A stretch of 13,352 nt of DNA, from IMG/VR virus record IMGVR_UViG_2667527789_000010; one strand, given 5' to 3'. Positions within the stretch are counted from its first letter, which is position 1. Every line of letters begins with the position of its first letter. Positions 1-12,244 of this stretch are shown in pieces. Both the position numbers and the translations under genes were made by a program. The notes under the pieces are model-generated. The model was not told where the DNA came from and searched no databases. It saw nothing but the letters and a program-made list of their open reading frames with translations. The stretch comes from a virus (taxonomy: Duplodnaviria; Heunggongvirae; Uroviricota; Caudoviricetes).

Positions 1-820
<820 letters not shown>

Positions 821-824
<4 letters not shown>

Positions 825-1132
825 ATATATTTATGATGAGGACGCTCGTGCTTATTGGCAGGATTTTCAATCTTAAAGGAGTACTGATGCTGCAGATAAG
901 ACTCAACTTTTTCTGACAATTTTTCTGCTACTTCCAGGAAGACTTGCCGGACGCTCCTTCTGGCTGCTGCCTCATAAAACTCCAGCGCAGCTCCTTCAAC
1001 ACGGTCCATGGCGACATCCAGGTCAAAAATTTCACCGTCAAAGCGTTCCTTGTCCTGTAAGGCTACAGTTACCGTAACTTTATTCTCAAAATTACGGACT
1101 CCTTTCACAACCAGTTCATAGTCTTGAGTCAT
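821..1132 (-). CDS. ydfR: YdfR-like lysis-cassette protein (DUF1327 by recall)
   Basis: 103-aa ORF between holin and endolysin, translationally coupled to the endolysin start. Position and length match Qin YdfR. Confidence 0.7.
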
Positions 1133-1136
1133 TGGA

Positions 1137-1352
1137 TTACTCTCCTCTCGCAGCCTTACGCCTGTCTTCTTTAATCTTGAAATAAAGATTTGTCAGATAC
1201 GTCAGCAGGCCAAAAACCAGGCTACCCAGCACACCGATTGCAGCCCACTGTGACGGAGTTACTTTATCGAGTAACTGTAATGCCCAGAAACCAGCATTAC
1301 CCGCCGATGTGCCATAGGCAACACCTGTTGTTAACTTATCCATTGATTTCAT
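1137..1352 (-). CDS. essQ: Holin, EssQ-like (71 aa)
   Basis: ATG at 1350-1352 preceded by GGTGAGGA. Product [71 protein letters not shown] has hydrophobic helices and a basic C-terminus. The track's 97-aa version is an upstream in-frame extension without an SD. Confidence 0.75.
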
Positions 1353-1572
1353 ATCCTCACCCCGATGTACACGGATGGTGCAATATGTTTGAAAAAGATC
1401 GGAGTCTACGGGGTAGTTTTGACAGCACACGTTGTTCTCAACGGCGCTAAAGAAACATACACATTAAAAATGTGAGTAATTATTTTGAAAGAAAGTCATA
1501 TATAAAATAATAATACGAGAAATGTTTTCATATTTAGTGTACTGTATACGGCCATTTATACAGGAAAAGCCT

Positions 1573-1743
1573 ATGTCAGAACGTAAAGACTCAAAATCAC
1601 GCCGTAATTATCTCGTTAAATGTTCCTGCCCAAACTGCACCCAAGAGTCAGAACACAGTTTTTCAAGAGTACAAAAAGGTGCCCTTTTGATCTGCCCTCA
1701 TTGCAACAAAGTATTCCAGACAAATCTTAAAGCTGTAGCCTGA
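1573..1743 (+). CDS. Small hypothetical zinc-ribbon protein (56 aa) with two CxxC pairs
   Basis: ATG at 1573 with AGGAAAAG SD. Product MSERKDSKSRRNYLVKCSCPNCTQESEHSFSRVQKGALLICPHCNKVFQTNLKAVA carries CPNC...CPHC. Sits in a strongly AT-rich island (about 1440-1800) on the strand opposite the late operon, followed by a hairpin at 1806-1825. Confidence 0.4.
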   Translation: MSERKDSKSRRNYLVKCSCPNCTQESEHSFSRVQKGALLICPHCNKVFQTNLKAVA

Positions 1744-1800
1744 TTGATTTTATTAGTAACAAGTATTTTTTATATTTTAATAATATATTTAAAGCAGATA

Positions 1801-1825
1801 ATAAAAAACCCGCCTGAGCGGGTTT
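1801..1825. terminator. Rho-independent terminator hairpin, probably bidirectional (clear T-tract on minus strand)
   Basis: AAACCCGC-CTGA-GCGGGTTT perfect stem-loop at 1806-1825. On the minus strand it is followed by TTTTTT, so it can terminate the cspB transcript; on the plus strand it follows the zinc-ribbon ORF but lacks a strong U-tract. Confidence 0.5.
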
Positions 1826-2106
1826 GAGATTGTGGTGCTTTTTGTGGGAGTCATCCACTTACGCACTTTGTTTTGCGATGCCAGCAGTTAGCTTCTGCTG
1901 TGAAACTATTCATGCAGCAAACCTGCACTTCACCACAATGGTTAGCATACTTTTCCTGATTAAGATTTTGCCAAATATGCTAGCCATTGTTTCATGTATT
2001 GGACCTCCTTACTTTTTATTAAAGAGATCCAATATTCACTACTCTGTCCGTATCTCTACTCAGGCATCAGCCTTCTTCGTTATCGTATACAGACGAGCGA
2101 TGAATT

Positions 2107-2322
2107 TTAATCAGTAATGATGACATTTGCTGCTGCAGGACCTTTAGCACCACTCTCTATAGAGAAGGTAACCTTTTGACCTTCAAATAAGGTTCGATAA
2201 TTATCATTCTGAATCGCAGAAAAATGCACAAACACATCTTTACTACCATCAACAGGAGAAATAAAGCCGAAACCTTTATCAGCGTTAAACCATTTTACTA
2301 AACCAGTCATTTTATTTGACAT
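2107..2322 (-). CDS. cspB: Cold-shock protein CspB (CspA family, 71 aa)
   Basis: [71 protein letters not shown] has the RNP1 (KGFGFI) and RNP2 (VFVHF) motifs. SD AAGGAA upstream of the ATG at 2320-2322. Confidence 0.9.
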
Positions 2323-2480
2323 TCTACATTCCTTAACTTGAGCCTTTCGGCATAAATGGTTTGCATAACAGAAACGACTTCGTACTTAATTGGAGAGACT
2401 CAAAGAAGGAATAAGTGAATAACACCTGAAATGAGAACTGCTTTAGTAAACTACTTCGTATATCGTCTGTTCTTCAAACC
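2323..2480 (-). promoter_or_regulatory. cspB long 5' UTR with cold-box-like element
   Basis: About 160 nt of non-coding leader upstream of cspB. Minus strand contains TGAAGAACAGACGA (complement of about 2464-2477), resembling the cspA-family cold box UGACGUACAGA. The promoter itself was not pinned down. Confidence 0.4.
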
Positions 2481-2620
2481 GACGCAGTCATTAACTCATA
2501 GTTGAACATATGAAGCAATGTTTATTTTAGACATCCAGCCACCTTCAATCCTATCAAAAAAGTAGTTTTCTCCAGGAACGTGTGTATGGTGCACCAGGTT
2601 ATCAGTATTAAGGAGTTTTT

Positions 2621-2832
2621 CTGTCCCCTAAAATGACAGGAATTGTCAAAAACTTTGACTACAAAAGCAGCAAAGGTCTTATATTCCCATCCGATGGCGT
2701 ATCGATGCCCAGCTTCACGTTTCAGCTCTCAATCTTCGAGATGCAGAAGAAATTACCACAGGATTACGCGTGGAATTTTGCTGGATAAATGGTTCGCGTG
2801 GACCTTCAACTGCCAATGTTTATCCCGGGATG
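2621..2832 (+). pseudogene. cspF/cspH-like cold-shock gene, degraded (start-codon change, frameshift, no in-frame stop)
   Basis: Frame 2 from ATG 2633 gives [22 protein letters not shown]. The Csp-like sequence then continues in frame 1 from 2698 as [42 protein letters not shown], consistent with a 1-bp deletion near GGC|CGT at 2696-2700. The SD AAGGAG (2610-2615) is positioned for a codon at 2621 that is CTG. The C-terminal frame has no stop until 3159. Confidence 0.55.
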
Positions 2833-2867
2833 AGATTCAATATCTCTATTGCCCCATTTAAAGCACA

Positions 2868-2902
2868 AAAACCCGCTTATAAGCGGGTTTTCTACTTTTT
2901 TC
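2868..2902. terminator. Bidirectional rho-independent terminator (tR'-like for the late transcript and terminator of the cspF-like gene)
   Basis: Perfect palindrome AAACCCGCTTA|TAAGCGGGTTT (2870-2891) followed by TCTACTTTTTT on the plus strand and by TTTTTGTGCTTT on the minus strand. Confidence 0.6.
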
Positions 2903-2938
2903 TAAACGTCGGATACACAAAGCCCATCGTTGAGAAAA

Positions 2939-2967
2939 TCTTATCCATGTTTTTTGAAAAATGCAAA
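2939..2967 (-). promoter_or_regulatory. Candidate late promoter (PR'-like) immediately downstream of the Q-like gene
   Basis: Minus strand reads TTGCAT (complement of 2962-2967), a 17-nt spacer, then TAAGAT (complement of 2939-2944), starting about 30 nt after the quuQ stop and about 50 nt before the terminator at 2870-2891. The arrangement matches lambdoid Q/PR'/tR' logic. Confidence 0.35.
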
Positions 2968-2997
2968 CATCATGTCGCCATCTTCAGCAAAAATCAT

Positions 2998-3750
2998 TTA
3001 TCTCGTCACCTTCCTCAATTGCGCTTCCGCGTATGCTTCTTCCTGCCAGCACTTTGTTACCAGTTTACCAATGACGTCCGCATACCCCTTATACCACTGA
3101 TAATCGGTCAGGTCTGGTACCAGCTTCTGGACATGACGTCGTGCCAGCGTGGTCGGTAAACGACTAAACCGGTTTCCATTACAACGCCCACAAATCTTAT
3201 ATACCGGTACGCCATGAAACCGGGTTCTTTTTTCATCCAGAACAATCCCTTTACCCTTACACCCTCTGCACGCTGTGCTGACTTCGCCCTTACCATGGCA
3301 ATGCTGACATAGTTCCTTCACCCATTCTTCCTTGATTACAGATTCCCCGCGTCTGTAGTGTTTCACCACTTCGCGCAATACATTATAAAATCCCGTACCT
3401 GAACAATGCTCACAGCGAGCCTTACTTGCCGCAGACCTGGAGTAATCAGCAAAGGCAAAATTCACGAGGTAAGGAATAATCTGTAACCGGATTTCTTCAC
3501 TCAATTTGTTCAATGTCGGGTTATCCAGTGCCATCGCGTAATTTAGCAGGCCTTCAATCGCAAACTGAGCGTCCTGAACACCAACTTTTGCCAGAAATAA
3601 GGCCAACCCAAGTGGTGCTTTCGACTGCACCATCCCCTGCGCTGCCATTACATCCGTAATTGTTAAACAACCGGTGCCTGTCGCTGGAGCGTCATCGCTC
3701 AATTTTGGAGATTTTGGGGAGTAATATTTTGGTAAGGCTTCAAGGTTCAT
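2998..3750 (-). CDS. quuQ: Late-gene antiterminator Q-like protein (QuuQ-like, 250 aa) with four CxxCxGxG zinc-finger repeats
   Basis: ATG at 3748-3750 preceded by GGAG. Contains [24 protein letters not shown] and CGRCNGNR repeats. Sits directly upstream of the lysis cassette and candidate late promoter. Length matches K-12 QuuQ by recall. The track's 260-aa version is an upstream extension. Confidence 0.7.
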
Positions 3751-3763
3751 GCTCGTTCTCCAC

Positions 3764-4813
3764 TTACGCCAGTACGCCAATTGCCAGCGCGCGATCGATA
3801 AAACGAAATATCAGCTCCAGTTGGGAGCCATACTTCTCTTCAAATGCCACTGTATCCGTATGCAGCTCGTTGTGATGCTTTCTGCACAAAGGCAACACAA
3901 AGAGATCATGTGCTTTTGTTCCCATTCCGCCCTGCCCGTGACCAATCAGATGATGCGGATCGTCGGCTGGCATACCGCAGCAAGCACACGGCTGTGTCTT
4001 AACCCAACGTGTGTATTTCTCCTTAACCCAGCGGCGACGTTTAGGCAGCTTCATGAAAGATTCCGGAGACTCTGGATCAACGGTGATGCTTACCACCGTC
4101 TTTTCCTGTGGTGTTTTTTGTTGCTGGTGGGCGTAAGGCAACGGTGCAAGATTTTTTGTGCGTTGTTTCAATATGCTGGTGGCGGTCTGCTCTCCCGGTA
4201 CGATGTCGCTTTCGCGGTACACCGAGCAGATTTTTTCCGCTGGTAATCCCAGCGAACGACGCGATACAGCCTCAGGTAGTGCATCCACCACCTGATTGCA
4301 GACCGCCCACCAGGATAATTCAGCCAAAGATAATTCCCGCTCCTGCGTACCGCTTATTGCGTGACGGATGACGTCAATCACCCATGCTGTCAGATTTTGT
4401 TGAGCAAGCAGCTCCAGTGATTCCGATGTCTGGTCACGCAGTTGGTTGTCGCAGTGCCAACACAACACCATTGCGCCGGTACCATAACGGTGAATGACTG
4501 TTTCAGAGTGATGGTAATCGCCATTAGGCCACTGGCAGGATGTAACATGACGTAATAGCCAGTCAGACAATGCGCCAACACCGCCAGCAGCACGAATCAC
4601 CCGTTCGTTACTAAAAAACGGCAGCAATGTTTTGTCTTCCGCCAGCGACTGGCGAACGGCAGGAACGACTCCGGATGGCAGATTACGCATGCTTTTTGGT
4701 TCCGGTTCCACCAGCACTCGAGGATTATGAAATATCTGTATGGATTCACGGCCCGGCTTAAGGACCACCAGCCCAAGCTCAGGCACCAGAACAGGTCTAA
4801 GTAATACCCGCAC
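3764..4813 (-). CDS. ydfU: YdfU-like protein (DUF968 by recall; 349 aa) with Cys/His-rich C-terminal motif
   Basis: GTG start at 4811-4813 preceded by a strong SD GGAGG and placed 1 nt after the stop of the upstream ORF; the track's ATG at 4852 would overlap that ORF. C-terminus contains CACCG...HHLIGHG...CRKHHNELH, a putative metal-binding or HNH-like region. Confidence 0.7.
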   Translation of the reverse strand: MRVLLRPVLVPELGLVVLKPGRESIQIFHNPRVLVEPEPKSMRNLPSGVVPAVRQSLAEDKTLLPFFSNERVIRAAGGVGALSDWLLRHVTSCQWPNGDYHHSETVIHRYGTGAMVLCWHCDNQLRDQTSESLELLAQQNLTAWVIDVIRHAISGTQERELSLAELSWWAVCNQVVDALPEAVSRRSLGLPAEKICSVYRESDIVPGEQTATSILKQRTKNLAPLPYAHQQQKTPQEKTVVSITVDPESPESFMKLPKRRRWVKEKYTRWVKTQPCACCGMPADDPHHLIGHGQGGMGTKAHDLFVLPLCRKHHNELHTDTVAFEEKYGSQLELIFRFIDRALAIGVLA

Positions 4814-4814
4814 G

Positions 4815-5093
4815 TTACCTCCAGATCCGTTGCTGGAAAGTGCGGGACGCACGTGGTGGGCGTTCGGAGTAAGGCAATCTGACTGAGATTATCCAGTGAC
4901 GGTAGTCGAGGCTAAGGGCTTTCTTAACCTCGTATCCGCGCCTGCGGTAACACTGAATTATCCATTCAGCCTGCTCTTCAGTGCATGGAGGGTGTTGGAA
5001 CCATTCAGACTTGAATGCGTGAGAATACCGCTCGTGCGTGCAGACAAGAACGGGCGAATTATCAGAATTGTAATATTTTACGTTGCGTGCCAT
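4815..5093 (-). CDS. Small prophage protein, Rem-like by position (92 aa)
   Basis: ATG at 5091-5093 preceded by GGAGAAAACCG. Lies directly upstream of ydfU, as rem does in Qin. Sequence identity to Rem was not verified. Confidence 0.5.
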   Translation of the reverse strand: MARNVKYYNSDNSPVLVCTHERYSHAFKSEWFQHPPCTEEQAEWIIQCYRRRGYEVKKALSLDYRHWIISVRLPYSERPPRASRTFQQRIWR

Positions 5094-5159
5094 CGGTTTT
5101 CTCCGGTGGCACGGTGTTACTCAGCGGGAGTTCAGCCCCGCGCAAGATTGTAGATGAGT

Positions 5160-5411
5160 TTATTCTTCTGCAAAAGCTAAAAAGCCTGCTTTTATTCCGA
5201 TCTCTTTCAGTGCCTGTAATGAAGTGACAAACTCACCTTCGCGCAAGATAAATCCGTCTGTCACTCGACCATCCACAAAATTAATTAACGCAGCCCCATT
5301 CTTTCGCAAACACATAATGCGGTAATGACTAACAAGATTTCCATTTTCAACGCACACAGCATAGAGGCCATCTTCACAAAAAATTTTACGCAATTCTTCG
5401 ATGTTCATCAT
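5160..5411 (-). CDS. Hypothetical protein (83 aa), unknown function
   Basis: ATG at 5409-5411 with SD GGAAGGA. Product MMNIEELRKIFCEDGLYAVCVENGNLVSHYRIMCLRKNGAALINFVDGRVTDGFILREGEFVTSLQALKEIGIKAGFLAFAEE. First gene after the hok terminator. Confidence 0.5.
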   Translation of the reverse strand: MMNIEELRKIFCEDGLYAVCVENGNLVSHYRIMCLRKNGAALINFVDGRVTDGFILREGEFVTSLQALKEIGIKAGFLAFAEE

Positions 5412-5530
5412 CAGAATCCTTCCGGATAATTAGCTCTCCCCTTTAAGGGACCATCCCTCTTATCCCTGCGCGCTACTTAAGTATTTTTGATTCTATTCCG
5501 GCACCGTCCAGAACTTCAAACGCGTTGAAA

Positions 5531-5559
5531 ATAAAAACAAAAACCCGCCGAAGCGGGTT
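5531..5559 (-). terminator. Rho-independent terminator of the hok transcript
   Basis: AACCCGC-CGAA-GCGGGTT hairpin (5542-5559). On the minus strand it is followed by TTTTTGTTTTTATTTT. A second hairpin GGCGAGGGA-TTTC-TCCCTCGCC (5599-5620) lies between the hok stop and this terminator and may be the 3' fold-back element of hok mRNAs. Confidence 0.6.
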
Positions 5560-5627
5560 AAGTGCGGGTGCGTTGAGGATGCCTGCCACATCAGAGGTGG
5601 CGAGGGATTTCTCCCTCGCCGGGTTTC

Positions 5628-5783
5628 TTACTCCTCAGGTTCGTAAGCTGTGAAGACAGCGACCTCCGTCTGGCCGGTTCGGATTCGTACCTCGCAGAGG
5701 TCTTTCCTCGTTACCAGTGCCGTCACTATGACGGTTAAACAGATGACGATCAGGGCGATTAACATCGCCTTTTGCTGCTTCAT
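5628..5783 (-). CDS. hokD: Hok-family type I toxin (51 aa), HokD-like
   Basis: MKQQKAMLIALIVICLTVIVTALVTRKDLCEVRIRTGQTEVAVFTAYEPEE: single TM helix plus the conserved Hok C-terminal region. SD AAGGAG lies 9 nt upstream of the ATG at 5781-5783. Confidence 0.85.
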   Translation of the reverse strand: MKQQKAMLIALIVICLTVIVTALVTRKDLCEVRIRTGQTEVAVFTAYEPEE

Positions 5784-5840
5784 AGCCTGCTTCTCCTTGC
5801 CTTTCGGCACGTAAGAGGCTAACCTACATATGTCTAGCAT
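5628..5840 (-). CDS. Mok-like reading frame (in-frame 19-codon N-terminal extension of hok)
   Basis: ATG at 5838-5840 with no SD gives MLDICRLASYVPKGKEKQA fused in frame to Hok. This resembles the chromosomal mok/hok arrangement in which mok shares the hok stop; that arrangement is recalled, not checked. Confidence 0.4.
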   Translation of the reverse strand: MLDICRLASYVPKGKEKQAMKQQKAMLIALIVICLTVIVTALVTRKDLCEVRIRTGQTEVAVFTAYEPEE

Positions 5841-5958
5841 GAAATTGGCCTCAGATTAATGTTAAGCGTCTTGCAGGACGCGTAATGTTAACTGGGGCTT
5901 TTCTCTATCTGCCGTTGGTGTTCATGCCCGAGGCAGATAGCCTCAAGCACCCGCAGCC

Positions 5959-5987
5959 ATTCTACTTAACTACCGTTACCTCGCCAA
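5959..5987 (-). promoter_or_regulatory. Candidate sigma70 promoter of the hok/mok transcript
   Basis: Minus strand reads TTGGCG, a 17-nt spacer, then TAGAAT (complement of 5982-5987 and 5959-5964). The predicted transcript from about 5951 to the terminator at about 5540 is roughly 410 nt, the size class of hok mRNAs. Confidence 0.4.
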
Positions 5988-6457
5988 TGTGAAATCAGTC
6001 AGAAAGGCGATCCATAAGAACAATAGCAAGACAATAAATCGCCATTACAGCCGTAATAGCCAGCGCACATTTGAGAACCAGCACCACAACCTCCTGTATT
6101 GGACGTAGACCAGTCCTGATGAATATGAGGCTGTCTCGTCAGTGATTCAATACAACTATTGGGTATAGTTTCTCTGATTTTTTCTGTGGAAATGGGGCAC
6201 AACCACTAGTCACCACCAGCACTTCTTTTAATACGCAAAGTCCGACACAAGCTAACCTTCTAGTCCGCTTTGAGCGAAAAACAGCCATAATTTAGTGCCA
6301 CGTATATAATGATAGAGCTATTCAAGCTAGCAATTCACATGTAAAAATTCAGAGGGTAGAAGCACATAGTTATAAATGTTGGCTCCATCGACAAATTGCG
6401 GTCTCAAGTACATTTATTAATGTTGCCCCCGCATTAACAAATCATCAAGGTGACGAC

Positions 6458-8245
6458 ATGGACGATATTAATATCAGCCTCGACGAACTTAACACTATTG
6501 ATTTATCCCCCTTAATCCAGAGTAAGCTGCCAGTTACCTGCTTTGATATCACAAAGTATCTTTCTAGCCTAGGTGATGGAAGAGCGGAGATAAGACTGCT
6601 AACCCATATTTGCGGTTTTCACTTTCGTCCCGAAAATCCACAGGTACCATTTGGTCCGTGCTTTCAAAGCAGCCAAGGTAGATCTGCAATTCCGGATGAC
6701 ATTAACGGGTTGTCGCTGGAGGTACTTTCTCAATTTTGCCCGACGATAGAGCTACCCGAACTTCAAGCTCGTATTGCTGATACACTTTGGGTTCGTAAAA
6801 TTGGTGGAATCCGTTTTCCTTTGCTGGCAGTCCGTGCTTATTATGCGTCCAGTATAGCTATTATGACATCGCAAGGGACGTGGGTTAGTGCTTTAGAACG
6901 CCTAGAGCGTGCGCTTAGGCTGTGTTGTTTTTTTCGAAAGCATACTGATTTCAGGGATGAATTTGATCAGCTTTCGGCACATCTACTAGCAGAGTATGAA
7001 CGTACCAGAGAACAAGGCGATTCACCTTATCCGCTGCGACTCCTGCAACTCGATATCGACTGTAAAGTGAGTGAGCCATCTTTTATTGCCCAGGAACTCC
7101 TGTTTCTGACAAAAAACTATCTGGCTCAAAAATTATTTTCATTTGCCGTCGATGCCTGTAAAACCGCAATCCCGATTGCGAATAGGTGCTGTGACAGAGA
7201 TACACAGTTTGAATTCTGGCGGCTTCTTGCCGATACACATCTGGAAGAGTCAAAATTCCAAGATGGCGGTATGATTTCGGCAGCCTGCATGCAGAATGCT
7301 ATTGAAGCACTGGCTAATATTCCAGGAACCCGAATAGAACGTCTTGCGCTGTATGAAGAAATGCGTGATTACCAAATCGAATCCCGTCACCAGATGTCTA
7401 TCCTTCAGTCTCCCCCTCAAGATATTAGTGAGATTGTCCATCAAGCCAAGAGTCGGGTAGTCGGAAGAGATTTGTTTGATATGGTTTTCAGACTTGCGAT
7501 GCTGGTCTGTCGGCCAACCAGCATTGAGAGACTTAAGGCTCAAGCAATAGAACAAAAGGCCAACAGCATAGCTTGGATGTTTGGATCAACACATATTGAT
7601 CATGAGGGAATGACACTTGCTCGCATACCCGCAGGATTGGGGATTGATGATGCAAATGGGGCAGTTATTTGGCCCATAATGATGACGAGAATGCGTATCG
7701 ACCATGAGTTGGCAGTAGCTGGGCAAATTATTCCTGCTACAGATGAGATCACAATGAAATATCCAATCTCGGAGGCGTTTTTTCGCGATATGTTCATCAA
7801 TCATCCCTTCATCCCGTTTGGGCATGAAGAGTTTTTCATCAAGGGTATGGTTTGCGGTTTCAATGGAGATTTTATGACGGCATGCCACGTGTTGATTCCC
7901 CAGCTCGAAAATAGTCTGAGATATGTGGCTAAAATTAAAGGTGAGGAACCATCGCAGCTTCACGGGGACGGTTCGCAAGAGCGAAATGGACTCAAGGGAT
8001 TACTAGATAATCCACTGATTATTGAAGCTTTCGGCGTAGACATAATTGGCAATCTTCAGGCCTTACTGGTAGATAAAATCTATGGTGATTTACGAAATCA
8101 ACTAGCTCACGGATATGTGCCTGCCGGTTACTACAATCAACCTCCCTGCATTTTTGCATGGTGGCTTGTATTGCACATTCTAATGAACCCTACGGCGAGA
8201 TACTGGCAAGCCACTTATGGCCAAGAGAGTGAGGCTCAGACTTAA
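6458..8245 (+). CDS. Large hypothetical protein (595 aa) with C-terminal HEPN-type R-x4-H motif; candidate defence/abortive-infection nuclease
   Basis: Unambiguous 1788-nt ORF with SD AAGGTG 5 nt upstream of the ATG. It is the only long plus-strand gene in an otherwise minus-strand block. Lower GC by eye (about 40-47%) and E. coli-rare codons (AGA, AGG, ATA, CTA). C-terminus contains GDLRNQLAHG; a second R-x5-H occurs at RDMFINH. No Walker A motif seen. Confidence 0.8.
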   Translation: MDDINISLDELNTIDLSPLIQSKLPVTCFDITKYLSSLGDGRAEIRLLTHICGFHFRPENPQVPFGPCFQSSQGRSAIPDDINGLSLEVLSQFCPTIELPELQARIADTLWVRKIGGIRFPLLAVRAYYASSIAIMTSQGTWVSALERLERALRLCCFFRKHTDFRDEFDQLSAHLLAEYERTREQGDSPYPLRLLQLDIDCKVSEPSFIAQELLFLTKNYLAQKLFSFAVDACKTAIPIANRCCDRDTQFEFWRLLADTHLEESKFQDGGMISAACMQNAIEALANIPGTRIERLALYEEMRDYQIESRHQMSILQSPPQDISEIVHQAKSRVVGRDLFDMVFRLAMLVCRPTSIERLKAQAIEQKANSIAWMFGSTHIDHEGMTLARIPAGLGIDDANGAVIWPIMMTRMRIDHELAVAGQIIPATDEITMKYPISEAFFRDMFINHPFIPFGHEEFFIKGMVCGFNGDFMTACHVLIPQLENSLRYVAKIKGEEPSQLHGDGSQERNGLKGLLDNPLIIEAFGVDIIGNLQALLVDKIYGDLRNQLAHGYVPAGYYNQPPCIFAWWLVLHILMNPTARYWQATYGQESEAQT

Positions 8246-8463
8246 AGTGAATAAGTTTACGAAGTTGGCACTTCCGGATGCATGTCCATATGAGTTGAGG
8301 CGATTTGGTTAATAAGGTTGAGTGCTGCTGAAATTATTCGATGTCCGCTTTTGGCACAAAGCGGACAACCACGCCAGATCTACCCTGTGCCATGAAAAAT
8401 GAGAATGTCAATTCACTCCTGAACTAATGCTTTTTAATCTAGTAACGTCTAAAATACCTAACA

Positions 8464-8865
8464 TTATCCCTGATAAAATGCCAGTATGCGCTGCATAACT
8501 TCACTCATCCGGCACTCGCGACAGATTATGTTTAGGCGACTGTCGTAGCGACGTATTTCTCCATCAGGTAACGACCAGATAACGTCCGGATCAACCACAG
8601 CTGTTTTCTTCACCTTTGCCCTCGAGAGTTTTTTGCGGGCGTTTTGCCAGTCCTTACGCGCCTGTTCAGACGGGAATAACCCGTAGCCGGAGTTGTATAC
8701 ATCGCCACTGGCTACCAGCTCTCTGGCAAGAACGCTCATCAGATATCTAGTCGCACCTGTTTTAGCTTCCAGTTGCCGTAACGTCTCACGACCGCTCTGG
8801 CGCACGAGTTCCACCACCTGCCCTTTAATTTTTTCCCGCTCTTCTTGTGTAAAAACTTTTGCCAC
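8464..8865 (-). CDS. Hypothetical prophage early-region protein (133 aa)
   Basis: GTG start at 8863-8865 preceded by a strong SD AAGGGGGA. Basic protein immediately downstream of the O-like replication gene. No recognisable motif. Confidence 0.5.
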   Translation of the reverse strand: MAKVFTQEEREKIKGQVVELVRQSGRETLRQLEAKTGATRYLMSVLARELVASGDVYNSGYGLFPSEQARKDWQNARKKLSRAKVKKTAVVDPDVIWSLPDGEIRRYDSRLNIICRECRMSEVMQRILAFYQG

Positions 8866-8905
8866 AAGTCCCCCTTAAAATTACCTCATGACCTGAAATC
8901 AAAAC

Positions 8906-9883
8906 TTATCCTCTGAAACCAGGCGGAATTTCTGTATCCGGTTCAGAAATATGATTAACACAACGCTGTACAGGTGAACGCCCCAGGCGGATGACCAGTT
9001 CGTCCCATTTTTCGCGGAGCTTTGACGGGCTCATGATGTTTTTTACCCAGAATGGATCCCGCTGTACCCGACCAAACATTTCACAAATTTGTCTGTGGCT
9101 TCTGCCATCCAGCATCCGCATTGTGCGCACATCATTGGCCCAGACAGTCCAGTTAGGCTCTTTTGGTCGCATGATCTCGCCATCATCACTGGCGGCCTGT
9201 TCGTAGAGACCCACGATCCGCCCCCATATCCACTGCGCACACGCCAGATCCTCCTGGCTACCCCACTGGCGTTTTTTCGCACTAAACACAACTGCGCCAG
9301 GGTGCCGGATTAAAAAATCCTGTTCAGCCGTCTGCGGGTCCGGTTGCGAAGCTTCCGGACGAAAAGTGTTTTTATTCTCTGTAGTAATCTCTGTTGTATT
9401 CTCTGTTGTATTCTCTGTAGGATCATCGGGCCATTTTGACCCGATGACATTGGGTCGTTTTGAACCAATGGAGCGTTTCATTTTGACCTCTTCCATCGTG
9501 TCATTTTGACCTGATGGAGCGGCGCATTTTGAACCGATGGATTCGCTCAATTTGCCATCATCTAAAAGCTCGCTCCCATAGTTAATCGTGTAGAAATTGG
9601 TCATATCGCGCTTTGATTTATTGAGCTTTTCACAACGCAAAAGCCCCAGCGTTTTCAGACTTGCAAACGCGCGCTTTAACGTTGACTCTGACCAGAATGG
9701 GAACTGTTCCAACCATTGTTCCGTTGTGTTGTAAATCCAGCGAACACCATCACATTCCATGCCGGAATTGGTATCTCTCAACCAGTAATGCAACTGCTGC
9801 AACACAATGGCTTCATTTAAGCCAATCTTCATCGCAAGCTGTGTGTTTATAACCAGTGGGCGTTCAGCAAAAAGAAGGCTCAT
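8906..9883 (-). CDS. Replication initiator, lambda O-like (replisome-organizer type) with internal origin iterons
   Basis: ATG at 9881-9883; the track's TTG at 9937 gives a longer version. N-terminal region (ERPLVINTQLAMKIGLNEAIVLQQLHYWLR...) resembles the DNA-binding domain of phage replication initiators. Central TENTTENTTEITTEN low-complexity linker is encoded by 12-bp tandem repeats, adjacent to 5 iterons. Sits downstream of the cro-like gene as O does in lambda. Confidence 0.65.
   Translation of the reverse strand: MSLLFAERPLVINTQLAMKIGLNEAIVLQQLHYWLRDTNSGMECDGVRWIYNTTEQWLEQFPFWSESTLKRAFASLKTLGLLRCEKLNKSKRDMTNFYTINYGSELLDDGKLSESIGSKCAAPSGQNDTMEEVKMKRSIGSKRPNVIGSKWPDDPTENTTENTTEITTENKNTFRPEASQPDPQTAEQDFLIRHPGAVVFSAKKRQWGSQEDLACAQWIWGRIVGLYEQAASDDGEIMRPKEPNWTVWANDVRTMRMLDGRSHRQICEMFGRVQRDPFWVKNIMSPSKLREKWDELVIRLGRSPVQRCVNHISEPDTEIPPGFRG
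9375..9422. repeat. Four tandem 12-bp repeats (TTCTCTGT[A/T]G[T/G]A) inside the O-like gene
   Basis: ttctctgtagta / atctctgttgta / ttctctgttgta / ttctctgtagga, read directly from the sequence. They encode the TTEN-repeat linker. Confidence 0.8.
9432..9540. repeat. Putative origin of replication: five iterons with about 23-bp periodicity (consensus CATTTTGACC-n-GATGG)
   Basis: Copies start at about 9432, 9456, 9479, 9502 and 9525 (cattttgacccgatg, gttttgaaccaatgg, cattttgacctcttcc, cattttgacctgatgg, cattttgaaccgatgg), inside the O-like gene as in lambda ori, and flanked by AT-richer sequence. Confidence 0.6.
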
Positions 9884-10385
9884 AATTCCATCCAGCTTTT
9901 TGTTGGTATTGCTGTCGATACGCAAGTTTGAAAGCAATTGCTTTTTCTATAAGTTCGTCAGTTTCACGATCCACTACGGCAGGATCAGCAAAAAGCAGTC
10001 CGGACTCCACCACATCGCCATATTCTTTGTTTAACCCGGCGATCATGTACGTGATGCTTTTTCCGTCACTAATTTCACGATACAACCTGAAATCATTAAT
10101 CCGGATAGCCTCCATAATTGCAGGCACTAGCGCCGTGAACTTTTCACGCTTATCCCTGGTGTCGATAGCCTTCCAGCGTTCGAATATCTTCACTCGATTA
10201 ACGCCAAGCGCTCGCTGATCAACCGCGCCACCTTCATCTGTGACACGCTGAACATCGATGTTCGGGCGCTCTTTCAAAGCCCAGAATGCTTCAGTGATTA
10301 ATATCGTCGCCTGCTCCTGTGTCATTCCTGGTCGACATATCCAGGCATCCAGAGCCTCACGAGCCTGTTCAGGAGTGATTTTCAT
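9864..10385 (-). CDS. Hypothetical early protein (173 aa) in the cII/YdaT position between cro-like and O-like genes
   Basis: ATG at 10383-10385 overlaps the dicC-like stop by 17 nt, and its own stop overlaps the O-like start by about 20 nt, indicating tight translational coupling. Function not recognised. Confidence 0.5.
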   Translation of the reverse strand: MKITPEQAREALDAWICRPGMTQEQATILITEAFWALKERPNIDVQRVTDEGGAVDQRALGVNRVKIFERWKAIDTRDKREKFTALVPAIMEAIRINDFRLYREISDGKSITYMIAGLNKEYGDVVESGLLFADPAVVDRETDELIEKAIAFKLAYRQQYQQKAGWNYEPSFC

Positions 10386-10596
10386 TGTTCAACCGCCCCG
10401 CCCGCTTCGTCTTACGATATTCGTCATAAACCTTGGGATCATACAGAAGCTCCCCGCCAGATGCCTCCTGTAGACGCATCGCGCGACCTTCAGGAACCAG
10501 TATCCCCCAAGCAGCAACACTTGCCAGTCTCACTCCTGCGGCATTGGCAAGCTTTGTTTTGCTGCCAAAAAAAGTAATTGCGTCAACTTTAAGCAT
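10369..10596 (-). CDS. dicC: Cro-analogue repressor DicC-like
   Basis: MLKVDAITFFGSKTKLANAAGVRLASVAAWGILVPEGRAMRLQEASGGELLYDPKVYDEYRKTKRAGRLNNENHS. ATG at 10594-10596 with SD GAGGGGG; the TTG at 10599 is an alternative start. Divergent from dicA across an operator-bearing intergenic region. Confidence 0.75.
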   Translation of the reverse strand: MLKVDAITFFGSKTKLANAAGVRLASVAAWGILVPEGRAMRLQEASGGELLYDPKVYDEYRKTKRAGRLNNENHS

Positions 10597-10609
10597 CAAA
10601 GCCCCCTCT

Positions 10610-10627
10610 TGTTAGACTTTTCTAACA
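10610..10627. promoter_or_regulatory. 18-bp palindromic operator in the dicC-dicA intergenic region (TGTTAGA-CTTT-TCTAACA)
   Basis: Perfect 7-bp inverted arms with a 4-bp spacer between the divergent repressor genes. Nearly identical to the second site at 11121-11138. Confidence 0.6.
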
Positions 10628-10676
10628 TTATTGTGCGCGGGATATCTAAGTCAAGAAAAATTAGAATTACCTAACT

Positions 10677-11084
10677 ATGGATACAAGAACCCTAGGCCAG
10701 CGAGTTCTGGCGCGACGAAAAGAATTACGCTTAACACAACGAGAAGCTGCGCGCCTCGCTGGAGTTGCTCACGTCACAATTTCACAATGGGAAAGAGACG
10801 AAACCCAGCCAGTCGGAAAACGATTGTTTGCTTTAGCGGATGCTCTGAAGTGCTCACCTACATGGCTAATGTTTGGTGACGAAGACAAGGCACCAGTGCC
10901 TGCACAAGAACTTCATGTGGAAACAGAGCTAACTCCCAACCACAAAGAATTGATCGAATTATTCGATGCTCTTCCATCTTCCGAGCAGGAAGCCTTGCTG
11001 TCTGAAATGCGCGCAAGAGTAGAAAACTTCAACAAACTCTTCGAAGAAATGCTTAAAGCGCGTAAAAATAAATCAATAAAATAA
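10677..11084 (+). CDS. dicA: CI-analogue HTH (XRE-family) repressor DicA-like, 135 aa
   Basis: HTH region LRLTQREAARLAGVAHVTISQWERDETQP. The downstream LFALADALKCSPTWLMFGDEDK and C-terminal EMRARVENFNKLFEEMLKARKN closely resemble K-12 DicA as recalled. Very short leader (candidate -10 TAGAAT at 10662-10667). Confidence 0.85.
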   Translation: MDTRTLGQRVLARRKELRLTQREAARLAGVAHVTISQWERDETQPVGKRLFALADALKCSPTWLMFGDEDKAPVPAQELHVETELTPNHKELIELFDALPSSEQEALLSEMRARVENFNKLFEEMLKARKNKSIK

Positions 11085-11409: not shown

Positions 11410-11985
11410 ATGGATTTCGACACAATCATGGAAAAGGCTTACGAAGAATACTTCGAAGGCCTTGCCGAAGGCGAAGAAGCTCTCAGCTTCAGTGAGTTTA
11501 AACAGGCACTCAGAATAAGAATGTGCTCTCACAATGACGCGGAGCACAAATATGAGAAGCAAAATCAGACCGCAGAAAATTTTGTTCTGGAACCCGGAGA
11601 AACGCTTTTCAAAATTCCCGTTACGTGCCCCATTTGCGGTTTTACATCAGAAGAACTTGACGACTCCTGTAACAATCAGGAAACAACCAAGTATGTCGAA
11701 GATGATACCGAGTGCGCACGAAGAACGATTATATCCACGAGTCCAAACTCCAGGGCCAATAAATCTCACTTTGAGAGGGTGATTAATCCACTCCCCCAAA
11801 CCAATAAAAAAGATGCCGGAGGACAAAAAACCCAATGGAACAACGGGATATCTGTCAAAAAAAGACGTTCCATTAAAGACAAACAACGCAGCGCCAACAA
11901 CTGTAAGCGCTTTATACCAGTAATCAATTTTCATGTTCTTAAGCGGATTTATTGGTGGTTGCGACATTGCTTAATGAATCCTTAA
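11410..11985 (+). CDS. YdfB-like N-terminus continuing as a 192-aa ORF (possible ydfB/ydfC fusion or over-extension); 3' half uncertain
   Basis: ATG at 11410 with SD AGGTGA, 1 nt after the ydfA stop. N-terminus MDFDTIMEKAYEEYFEGLAEGEEALSFSEFKQAL is acidic and protein-like, followed by a CPICG...C...C zinc-ribbon-like segment. The K/N/R-rich tail (from about 11700) overlaps a 106-aa minus-strand ORF that looks like a membrane protein. Confidence 0.35.
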   Translation: MDFDTIMEKAYEEYFEGLAEGEEALSFSEFKQALRIRMCSHNDAEHKYEKQNQTAENFVLEPGETLFKIPVTCPICGFTSEELDDSCNNQETTKYVEDDTECARRTIISTSPNSRANKSHFERVINPLPQTNKKDAGGQKTQWNNGISVKKRRSIKDKQRSANNCKRFIPVINFHVLKRIYWWLRHCLMNP

Positions 11986-12244
11986 AACTGTGGTGATTTT
12001 AAGGATACCACCTCGCCTGACGTGGTTAAAAGCAGGCACACAACACGAAAGCGCACGGCGAAGTTCGTCTCACTGTACGGTGTCGTTAAATTTAATTCGA
12101 CCGTGCGCTTCCGGTTGTGGCAACCCGCAAAATGGCGCGGCGGTAAGTATGGCGGGGTTATTCCTTCCCCGTTGAGGACACCGGGTTGTCAGGTTGACCA
12201 TACGCTTAAGTGACAACCCCGCTGCAACGCCCTCTGTTATCAAT

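Follow-up and report, generated by a model that had tools for sequence, protein, structure and literature searches.

The DNA analyzed here, 13,352 nucleotides (nt) from the IMG/VR virus record IMGVR_UViG_2667527789_000010 (the window, below), is part of a Qin-type lambdoid prophage of Escherichia coli, and the interval of interest, 5160-10600, extends from rem to dicC and includes a hok/mok/sok locus, a gene for a 595-amino acid (aa) protein with a HEPN domain and a replication module. The window is 99.7% identical over 13.2 kb to a prophage of strain ATCC 25922 that adjoins rspB, the same chromosomal site as that of Qin in E. coli K-12, and an earlier sequence-only reading of this interval was right to regard the prophage as a Qin relative of mosaic make-up. 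Several other strains carry 5160-10600 at 100% identity, and at least 80% of it is found in 145 of the 5426 complete E. coli genomes that comprise the sample for all population counts given here, showing that the sequence is real and recurrent. Taken as a whole, the interval is probably best explained as the undeleted early-right arm of an mEp460-like prophage that carries a defense-type cargo, with K-12 Qin as a derived state.

All open reading frames (ORFs) listed in the sequence-only reading are present at the coordinates it gave. The genes and other features of the interval are as follows:

5160-5411, minus strand: rem, a gene of the conserved backbone; 95% identity with K-12 Rem, annotated as rem in ATCC 25922
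5542-5559, minus strand: intrinsic terminator of hok, a G+C-rich stem followed by a T-run, which closes the folded hok mRNA
5628-5783, minus strand: hokD; Pfam HOK_GEF (PF01848), E = 2.9e-23; K-12 HokD is 100% identical
5778-5952, minus strand: complete leader of the hok mRNA (tac 5' end, mok start and Sok target), Rfam RF01794
5797-5825, plus strand: probable sok promoter, TTGCCT-17-TAACCT, read from the sequence
5959-5987, minus strand: hok promoter, TTGGCG-17-TAGAAT, from a promoter scan
6263-6286: left palindrome, GTCCGCTTTGAGCGAAAAACAGCC, with the distal arm degenerate in the window
~6278-8342, plus strand: cargo cassette of ~2.07 kb (own upstream region, 595-aa gene and 3' tail), delimited by shared flanks and differing interiors
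6458-8245, plus strand: 595-aa gene; DUF7380, TPR-like and HEPN (DUF4209) regions, PADLOC candidate PDC-S39
8343-8366: right palindrome, GTCCGCTTTTGGCACAAAGCGGAC, perfect, with a 9-bp stem and a 6-nt loop
8464-8865, minus strand: DUF977 gene, 133 aa; Pfam DUF977, E = 1.4e-26; phrog_142, 'Ren-like exclusion protein', E = 2e-44
8906-9883 (longest ORF to 9937), minus strand: O-like initiator, 325 aa from the RefSeq-type start; phrog_391, 'replication initiation O-like', E = 2.9e-92
9370-9562: origin inside the O gene (iterons and a 12-bp repeat tract), from a repeat search and direct reading
9864-10385, minus strand: full-length YdaT/CII-like gene, 173 aa; Pfam YdaT_toxin, E = 1.2e-5; phrog_163, 'CII-like transcriptional activator', E = 2.3e-40
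10369-10596, minus strand: dicC (Cro-type), the first gene of the early-right operon; NCBIfam DicC, E = 1e-48; K-12 DicC is 84% identical

Read leftward from the DicA/DicC switch, the operon would encode the Cro-like DicC, a YdaT/CII-like protein, an O-like initiator with an internal origin and the DUF977 protein, to be followed downstream by a palindrome-bounded slot, an intact hok/mok/sok locus with its own promoter, rem, ydfU and Q. Beyond rem, the minus strand carries ydfU and then the Q-type antiterminator gene ydfT. The 595-aa ORF is the single plus-strand gene amid this minus-strand operon and is convergent to it. Between ydfU and rem, a 92-aa ORF (4815-5093) gave a phrog_1212 match (E = 1.8e-35). 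ATCC 25922 has it as a hypothetical gene, and no gene is annotated in the K-12 sequence homologous to it.

The dicC-to-hok interval here and in K-12 Qin

At the rem-proximal end of the interval, the hok leader is covered end to end by RF01794, from 5952 to 5778 (model positions 1-157 of 157, 112.7 bits at a gathering score of 59, E = 1.7e-25), and the transcription start predicted for the hok promoter, about 7 nt downstream of it, falls on 5952, the base at which the Rfam model begins. With the promoter called by the scan and the leader at full length, the earlier claim that hok has a promoter of its own is supported. A 70-aa ORF in frame with hok (5628-5840, with an ATG at 5840) was considered as a separate gene and rejected, being the mok-type extension of hok. 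When 5952-5536 is folded in silico, the minimum-free-energy structure (-170.6 kcal/mol, z = -6.4) is predicted to pair the 5'-terminal ~17 nt with an fbi-type segment near the 3' end that immediately precedes the terminator, a pairing also found in full-length hok mRNAs. Sok RNA would probably be transcribed from about 5832 rightwards, from the putative promoter at 5797-5825, which was not called by the promoter scan but is, we presume, collinear with the sok promoter of plasmid R1.

This locus resembles hok/mok/sok of R1 and the hok loci on E. coli chromosomes in the Hok_Gef toxin, the RF01794 leader, the mok-type extension, the tac/fbi-type pairing of the 5' and 3' ends (predicted here) and the possession of its own promoter and terminator; unlike the R1 locus, it is chromosomal and prophage-borne, with a sok promoter and RNA that are putative. 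An intact hok with its leader is found in 4020 of the 5426 genomes. By contrast, the hokD copy of K-12 is a truncated derivative that is read, in the relBEF operon, from the relBE promoter. Only 5778-5797 of the leader is retained in K-12, and the homology breaks exactly at the putative sok promoter.

The sequence-only reading had relied on a K-12 gene map and proposed that, relative to Qin, a module had been replaced, with other cargo occupying the toxin-antitoxin slot. The map was correct, the annotated order in K-12 being dicC, ydfX, ydfW, flxA, ydfV, relB, relE, hokD, rem, ydfU and ydfT, and whole-locus alignment of the two prophages showed that the gene content of the dicC-to-hok interval does differ. 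In a blastn comparison, K-12 Qin matches the window with 98% identity over 127-5797, not at all over 5798-10105 and with 86% identity over 10106-10689; the K-12 interval left unmatched to 5798-10105 is 15290-17357 of L002, the K-12 locus in our comparison set (other L numbers denote further loci of this set). A tblastn search of the window with K-12 RelE, RelB, YdfV, FlxA, YdfW and YdfC yielded no match at E <= 1e-3, in agreement with the earlier statement that RelB and RelE ORFs are lacking here, as are flxA and ydfW. The ydfX gene of K-12 corresponds to the first 93 codons of the 173-aa gene (98% identity over residues 1-93). Overall, K-12 Qin shares with the window the rspB site (as located in ATCC 25922) and 97-98% identity over the lysis genes, cspB, ydfT, ydfU, rem and the hokD coding sequence, and again over dicF, dicB and ydfD, but lacks the 3' half of ydaT, the O gene with the origin, DUF977 and the cargo slot, as well as the hok leader, the hok promoter and sok, in place of which it has the relBE-ydfV-flxA-ydfW block.

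Two intervals that share no similarity (5798-10105 and L002 15290-17357) and are both located between dicC and hokD could result from a single recombination, in which a toxin-antitoxin module with relBE, flxA and the intK remnant was exchanged for a replication and defense block, the two being alternative occupants of one slot. We consider such an exchange highly improbable given the existence of genomes that carry both gene sets, with the hok leader in between. In WCHEC040047 (L006) and HCP6S3_I1 (L010), the full dicC-ydaT-O-DUF977 module and a slot cargo are accompanied by a detached hok promoter and leader (window 5782-5972), after which come a partial ISNCY transposase gene and then ydfW, flxA, ydfV and relBE. 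The relBE-ydfV-flxA-ydfW block interrupts the hok leader 14 nt before the ATG of hokD, and the 15-bp sequence ATAGCCTGCTTCTCC is found at both of its ends. Because the block and the displaced leader are present together in L006 and L010, the block can be identified as an insertion into the hok leader. Furthermore, the identity between K-12 and L010 is 100% leftward of L010 position 1503 and 99.9% rightward of 7638, so that the two differ by nothing but one clean 6.1-kb deletion (L010 1504-7637), with a 2-nt overlap at the junction; given this identity on both sides of a single deletion, K-12 represents the derived state. The flanks of the actual cargo slot, moreover, stop at about 6277 and 8343, away from the K-12 breakpoints. 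Thus, of the proposed module replacement, the difference in content stands, whereas the single swap does not and resolves into three separate differences; the co-occurrence of the relBE block and the replication module in L006 and L010 contradicts the notion that the toxin-antitoxin slot was exchanged for cargo.

Accordingly worded as a history, K-12 Qin would have arisen from the same architecture as that seen in the window, first through insertion of relBE-ydfV-flxA-ydfW into the hok leader and subsequently through the loss of 6.1 kb, from just past ydfW into ydaT. Judging from the alignments, we regard this reconstruction, with the undeleted form represented here and the K-12 form derived by one insertion and one deletion, as very likely correct. 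The integration of relBE into hokD, shortening it from about 70 to 51 codons, has been reported previously (PMC6379469); in the literature searched, we found no account of the 6.1-kb deletion step. The relE|hokD junction is present in 1163 of the genomes and the K-12 deletion junction in 360, and the replication module is found in 1583 (about 29%).

Several further differences between the window and K-12 were observed outside the interval or at its edge. DicA (10677-11084) is only 57% identical to its K-12 counterpart and DicC 84%, compared with 98% for the adjacent YdfX-equivalent part of ydaT, a contrast that points to an immunity allele other than that of K-12 and to a recombination joint near 10385. 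No similarity to K-12 was detected over 11511-12027, and ydfC is missing from the window; a 106-aa hydrophobic ORF on the minus strand (11647-11967), for which there was no Pfam hit, is located at the position of the annotated sieB of SCU-125. At 2822/2823, 258 bp of K-12 sequence, containing ynfS and the 3' end of cspF, are absent, and cspF is a RefSeq pseudogene in ATCC 25922.

The replication module

No Pfam family matched the O-like protein, which several genomes annotate as 'phage replication protein O'; PHROGs labeled DnaD-like helicase loader or replisome organiser match its C-terminal half. The origin inside its gene consists of six iterons with a 23-bp spacing and the core CATTTTGA(A/C)C (9424-9562), several of which are internally palindromic, bordered by the 12-bp repeat tract (9370-9429) that encodes ENTT repeats. 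The interval 5160-10600 measures 5441 bp here and 5429 bp in ATCC 25922; judging from this length, the 12-bp excess most likely corresponds to one extra unit of the ENTT tract, that is, to copy-number variation beside the iterons. The gene that follows O, DUF977, occupies the position of lambda ren and is the last early-right gene before the slot. The arrangement is similar to that of lambda O/ori in that the origin lies inside the initiator gene, with iterons followed by a repeat-rich stretch, and in that cro- and cII-like genes precede the initiator and a gene in the ren position follows it. It differs from lambda in the iterons, six with a 23-bp spacing compared with four of 19 bp in lambda, in the absence of a P gene, and in an O-like protein that lacks a Pfam hit and matches DnaD-like PHROGs.

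The sequence-only reading described this module as complete. With respect to the O-like initiator and the internal iterons, this was accurate; a P-, DnaC- or DnaB-type component is another matter, given that none of the ORFs in 8464-10599 matched a family of helicase loaders or helicases (P, DnaC-like or DnaB-like). This result counts against our reading of the arm as well preserved and would be expected if the module were incomplete and incapable of autonomous replication without a loader, the entire interval being a decaying remnant that is merely less eroded than K-12 Qin; consistent with this alternative, no such match was obtained anywhere between dicC and hok, and the related module of Rac includes a gene annotated as 'ydaV: DNA replication protein', the product of which we take to be DnaC-like. 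We nevertheless judge decay of this kind to be improbable. The same loader-less order, dicC-ydaT-O-DUF977, recurs at 97-98% identity in records deposited as phages, namely, mEp460_ev081, HannyBb and PhiR42_1, the C-terminal half of the O-like protein has the DnaD-like loader or replisome organiser matches mentioned above, and the ATCC 25922 prophage retains the integrase, excisionase, exonuclease and terminase genes. By comparison with these phages, then, the module appears complete only insofar as it lacks nothing that related phages have. With no loader encoded, the initiator would presumably recruit host DnaB/DnaC.

The cargo slot and its boundary palindromes

The phages mEp460_ev081 (LR597641) and HannyBb (PP925841) share with the window, at 97-98% identity, the entire backbone of repressor, dicC, ydaT, O, DUF977, hok, rem, ydfU and Q, as well as the boundaries of the slot between DUF977 and hok, but differ from it in the content of the slot. 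The same holds for L003, L007, L008 and L009, which have the flanks in common with the window and not the interior of the cassette. In alignments to four different cargo types, the hok-side flank stops at 6275-6280 and the DUF977-side flank resumes at 8341-8343. The comparison with related prophages localizes the variation in cargo to ~6278-8342. At least 12 cargo types occupy this slot in related prophages, including the following:

mEp460_ev081: PD-T7-1 (E = 4e-157)
L006: QueH and Kiwa (KwaA, E = 1.3e-101; KwaB, E = 2.8e-159)
MS 69-1: RelA/SpoT protein with a match to PDC-S33 (E = 5.3e-119)
SCU-125: NUDIX and HAD proteins
L032 and relatives: TetR, adenosine deaminase, Ham1 and SIR2 proteins
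L079: HTH-cupin and GNAT proteins
HannyBb: QueH and a methyltransferase fragment
several other prophages: proteins without an assigned function

Apart from PD-T7-1, Kiwa, PDC-S33 and the SIR2/ThsA-like protein, the alternative cargos of the slot showed no defense match. The four-gene cargo, found at L032 1793-5305, at L075 7522-11034 and in L085, encodes a TetR-type regulator, an adenosine deaminase, a Ham1/ITPase-like protein and a SIR2-like protein with a weak match to ThsA, and looks like an uncharacterized defense cassette.

An empty slot was not found in any of the 5426 genomes when searched with a synthetic empty-site query. BL21, considered as a candidate for one, was rejected, carrying instead a deletion of 6108-8568 that also took the end of DUF977. 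The smallest cargo, of ~840 bp, codes for a 195-aa protein without an assigned function. The ~275 bp that separate the left palindrome from the hok promoter (5988-6262) are kept in all related prophages regardless of their cargo, and the HannyBb annotation places two small plus-strand ORFs in the equivalent region.

With constant flanks, variable content and known defense systems among the contents, the slot is a prophage defense hotspot. PD-T7-1 is a validated defense system (PMC9519451), and accessory and defense genes are common after the replication genes of lambdoid prophages (PMC13043305). The presence of PD-T7-1 and Kiwa makes the other cargos of the slot good defense candidates. The region as a whole is a typical, well-preserved lambdoid early-right arm with a defense-type moron, a case of ordinary mosaicism in which there is nothing unexpected.

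Both ends of the cassette are marked by palindromes of a 24-bp family, GTCCGCTTT-N6-AAAGCGGAC, copies of which were located by a regular expression scan. At the corresponding position, L007, L008 and numerous loci of IMG/VR have an intact left palindrome, and the right palindrome is kept at the DUF977 side of all cargo types examined. Exact copies are present in 67 IMG/VR contigs, about half of which are DUF977- or hok-type loci, and contigs that cover both ends of the slot have a single copy to either side of the cargo, be it large or small. Among the copies, the stem sequence is kept, with a few compensatory changes, and the loop sequence varies. The boundary hairpins were considered as intrinsic terminators and rejected, neither stem having a trailing T-run. 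Outside the slot, two such palindromes bracket flxA in K-12 (L002 15982-16005 and 16973-16996), and arrays are found elsewhere in viral contigs, with some copies 45 bp apart (for example, L040 310-1358).

The cassette of the window recurs, with 92% identity, in the unrelated backbone of L076, which includes umuDC-like genes, an invertase and tail fiber genes, and the homology between the two (L076 1326-3421) spans exactly 6271-8366. The homology thus ends within the left palindrome and, on the other side, at the outer border of the right one, and every cargo type examined likewise breaks at the palindromes, as could be expected if these served as joints in cassette exchange. Alternatively, the palindromes might be only transcription or RNA-stability signals or repetitive extragenic palindromic (REP)-like elements, with the cassettes exchanged by homologous recombination in the flanking genes. 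This is a serious alternative to which we assign somewhat less than even odds: copies do occur outside the slot, some in the arrays with 45-bp steps and beside genes that do not look phage-derived, and the compensatory changes in the stems are of the kind seen in structured RNA or single-stranded DNA, but the coincidence of the homology breaks with the palindromes and the lack of a T-run after the stems argue the other way.

The 595-aa HEPN protein

The cargo of the window had been called HEPN-like and defense-like in the sequence-only reading, and profile searches support both descriptions. Pfam DUF7380 covers residues 4-166 of the protein, the middle part is TPR-like, and the C-terminal HEPN region matches DUF4209 (PF13910) over residues 484-573 (E = 3.2e-8, 33.9 bits at a cut-off of 22.3), a predicted active HEPN family (PMC3710099, Anantharaman et al.). 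This region displays the four-helix up-and-down fold of HEPN domains and, where the last core helix begins, an R-x4-H motif, R546-N-Q-L-A-H551. Residues G384, Q482, E484, R488, R546, H551 and G552 are invariant in 39 homologues with identities down to 23%, and the conserved residues form a QxENSxxR motif along with the R-x4-H motif. Both PDC-S39 hidden Markov models of PADLOC match the protein, PDLC05012 with E = 2.9e-102 over residues 43-581 and PDLC05011 with E = 2e-101. Sequence and profile searches of the PDB returned only a weak match to the TPR repeats of kinesin light chain, and a literature search on DUF7380 found nothing.

In E. coli, the gene is present in 152 of the 5426 genomes, always on the chromosome and with at least 99% identity. 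The wider family comprises 3202 clusters (at 50% identity) with E <= 1e-30 and a uniform length of about 600 aa. Homologues are located in the gpA-gpQ hotspot of P2, downstream of Q in an Enterobacter prophage, beside a giant NERD-UvrD protein in Pseudomonas and at a prophage end near umuD/dinI. The P2-hotspot homologue (E. coli S88, phage vB_EcoM-569R9) has the same three-part architecture, both HEPN motifs (with LRHKLAHG as the second) and a PDC-S39 match with E = 8.5e-85, but is 24% identical to the protein of the window and belongs to another phage family, where it occupies another slot.

The most likely role of the 595-aa protein appears to be that of a prophage-encoded, single-protein abortive-infection RNase, a model in which HepS and other single-protein HEPN systems serve as the analogues. 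The gene for HepS, a solo HEPN protein of the Salmonella prophage Gifsy-1, is located past the replication genes; a tail-tip protein activates HepS, which cleaves the anticodon loops of tRNAs (PMC13043305). Like HepS, the protein of the window is a single-gene prophage HEPN with an R-x4-6-H motif, encoded in the accessory region that follows lambdoid replication genes; HepS, however, is a small tetrameric solo HEPN protein with the catalytic residues R100 and H105, whereas the protein described here has ~600 aa and carries DUF7380 and TPR-like domains. By this analogy, the lysogen would produce the protein as an auto-inhibited RNase, expressed from the gene's own upstream region. The DUF7380/TPR part would sense a component of an infecting phage, whereupon two HEPN domains would form a composite site in which R546 and H551 are combined with Q482, E484, N485 and R488. 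Once activated, the protein would cut tRNA or other RNA, stop translation and abort the infection.

Several results weigh against this model. In the searchable literature, PDC-S39 was encountered only as a name in PADLOC output lists, and no report of protection by any member was found. Rousset et al. cloned the S88 P2-hotspot homologue (pFR103, 'Putative HEPN') and challenged it with phages, and pFR103 is given under 'additional tested systems', outside their validated list. In several strains, the gene is split by IS66/ISEc23 or IS3 insertion sequence elements, which implies that it is dispensable. In Vibrio cholerae, a homologue belongs to a two-gene islet between housekeeping genes with no defense neighbors. 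Finally, no promoter was called by the scan of the region upstream of the 595-aa gene, and no terminator was found behind it.

The alternative, in which the protein is not an anti-phage factor but an RNA-processing or regulatory factor, a toxin that stabilizes the prophage or a scaffold with a non-immune HEPN site, draws on some of the same observations, namely, the placement of the tested homologue outside the validated systems and the context in V. cholerae, which does not resemble that of a defense gene. It also accommodates a eukaryotic DUF4209 branch (C6orf70/ERMARD) with no link to immunity and the metabolic appearance of the QueH, NUDIX/HAD and GNAT cargos. We consider it unlikely, in view of the invariance of the catalytic HEPN residues across 39 diverse homologues, the recurrence of the family at four distinct accessory sites of prophages (the P2 hotspot among them) and the sharing of the slot with PD-T7-1 and Kiwa. 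The family is also among the phage defense candidates of the PADLOC authors, which were reportedly chosen by genomic association. On balance, a defense function of the 595-aa protein seems slightly more likely than not. A bolder, joint proposition, in which the palindromes are portable recombination joints for defense cassettes and PDC-S39 is a working TPR-sensor/HEPN-effector protein with an undescribed trigger, is doubtful; if true, the palindromes would constitute a lambdoid cassette-exchange system that is integron-like in effect, with no dedicated integrase identified.

The present analysis delineates a compact accessory slot with sharp boundaries that already holds two validated defense systems, and other cargos, namely, PDC-S39, PDC-S33, the SIR2/deaminase/Ham1 set and several proteins without an assigned function, deserve attention. 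The PDC-S39 family, with more than 3000 clusters, shares its HEPN domain with eukaryotic ERMARD, and a positive phage test would annotate many genes. For K-12, Qin can be re-read as a prophage in which relBE, flxA and ydfW are an insertion into hok/sok and the replication genes were lost later by deletion, a history that is relevant for the interpretation of relBEF or hokD regulation in this strain.

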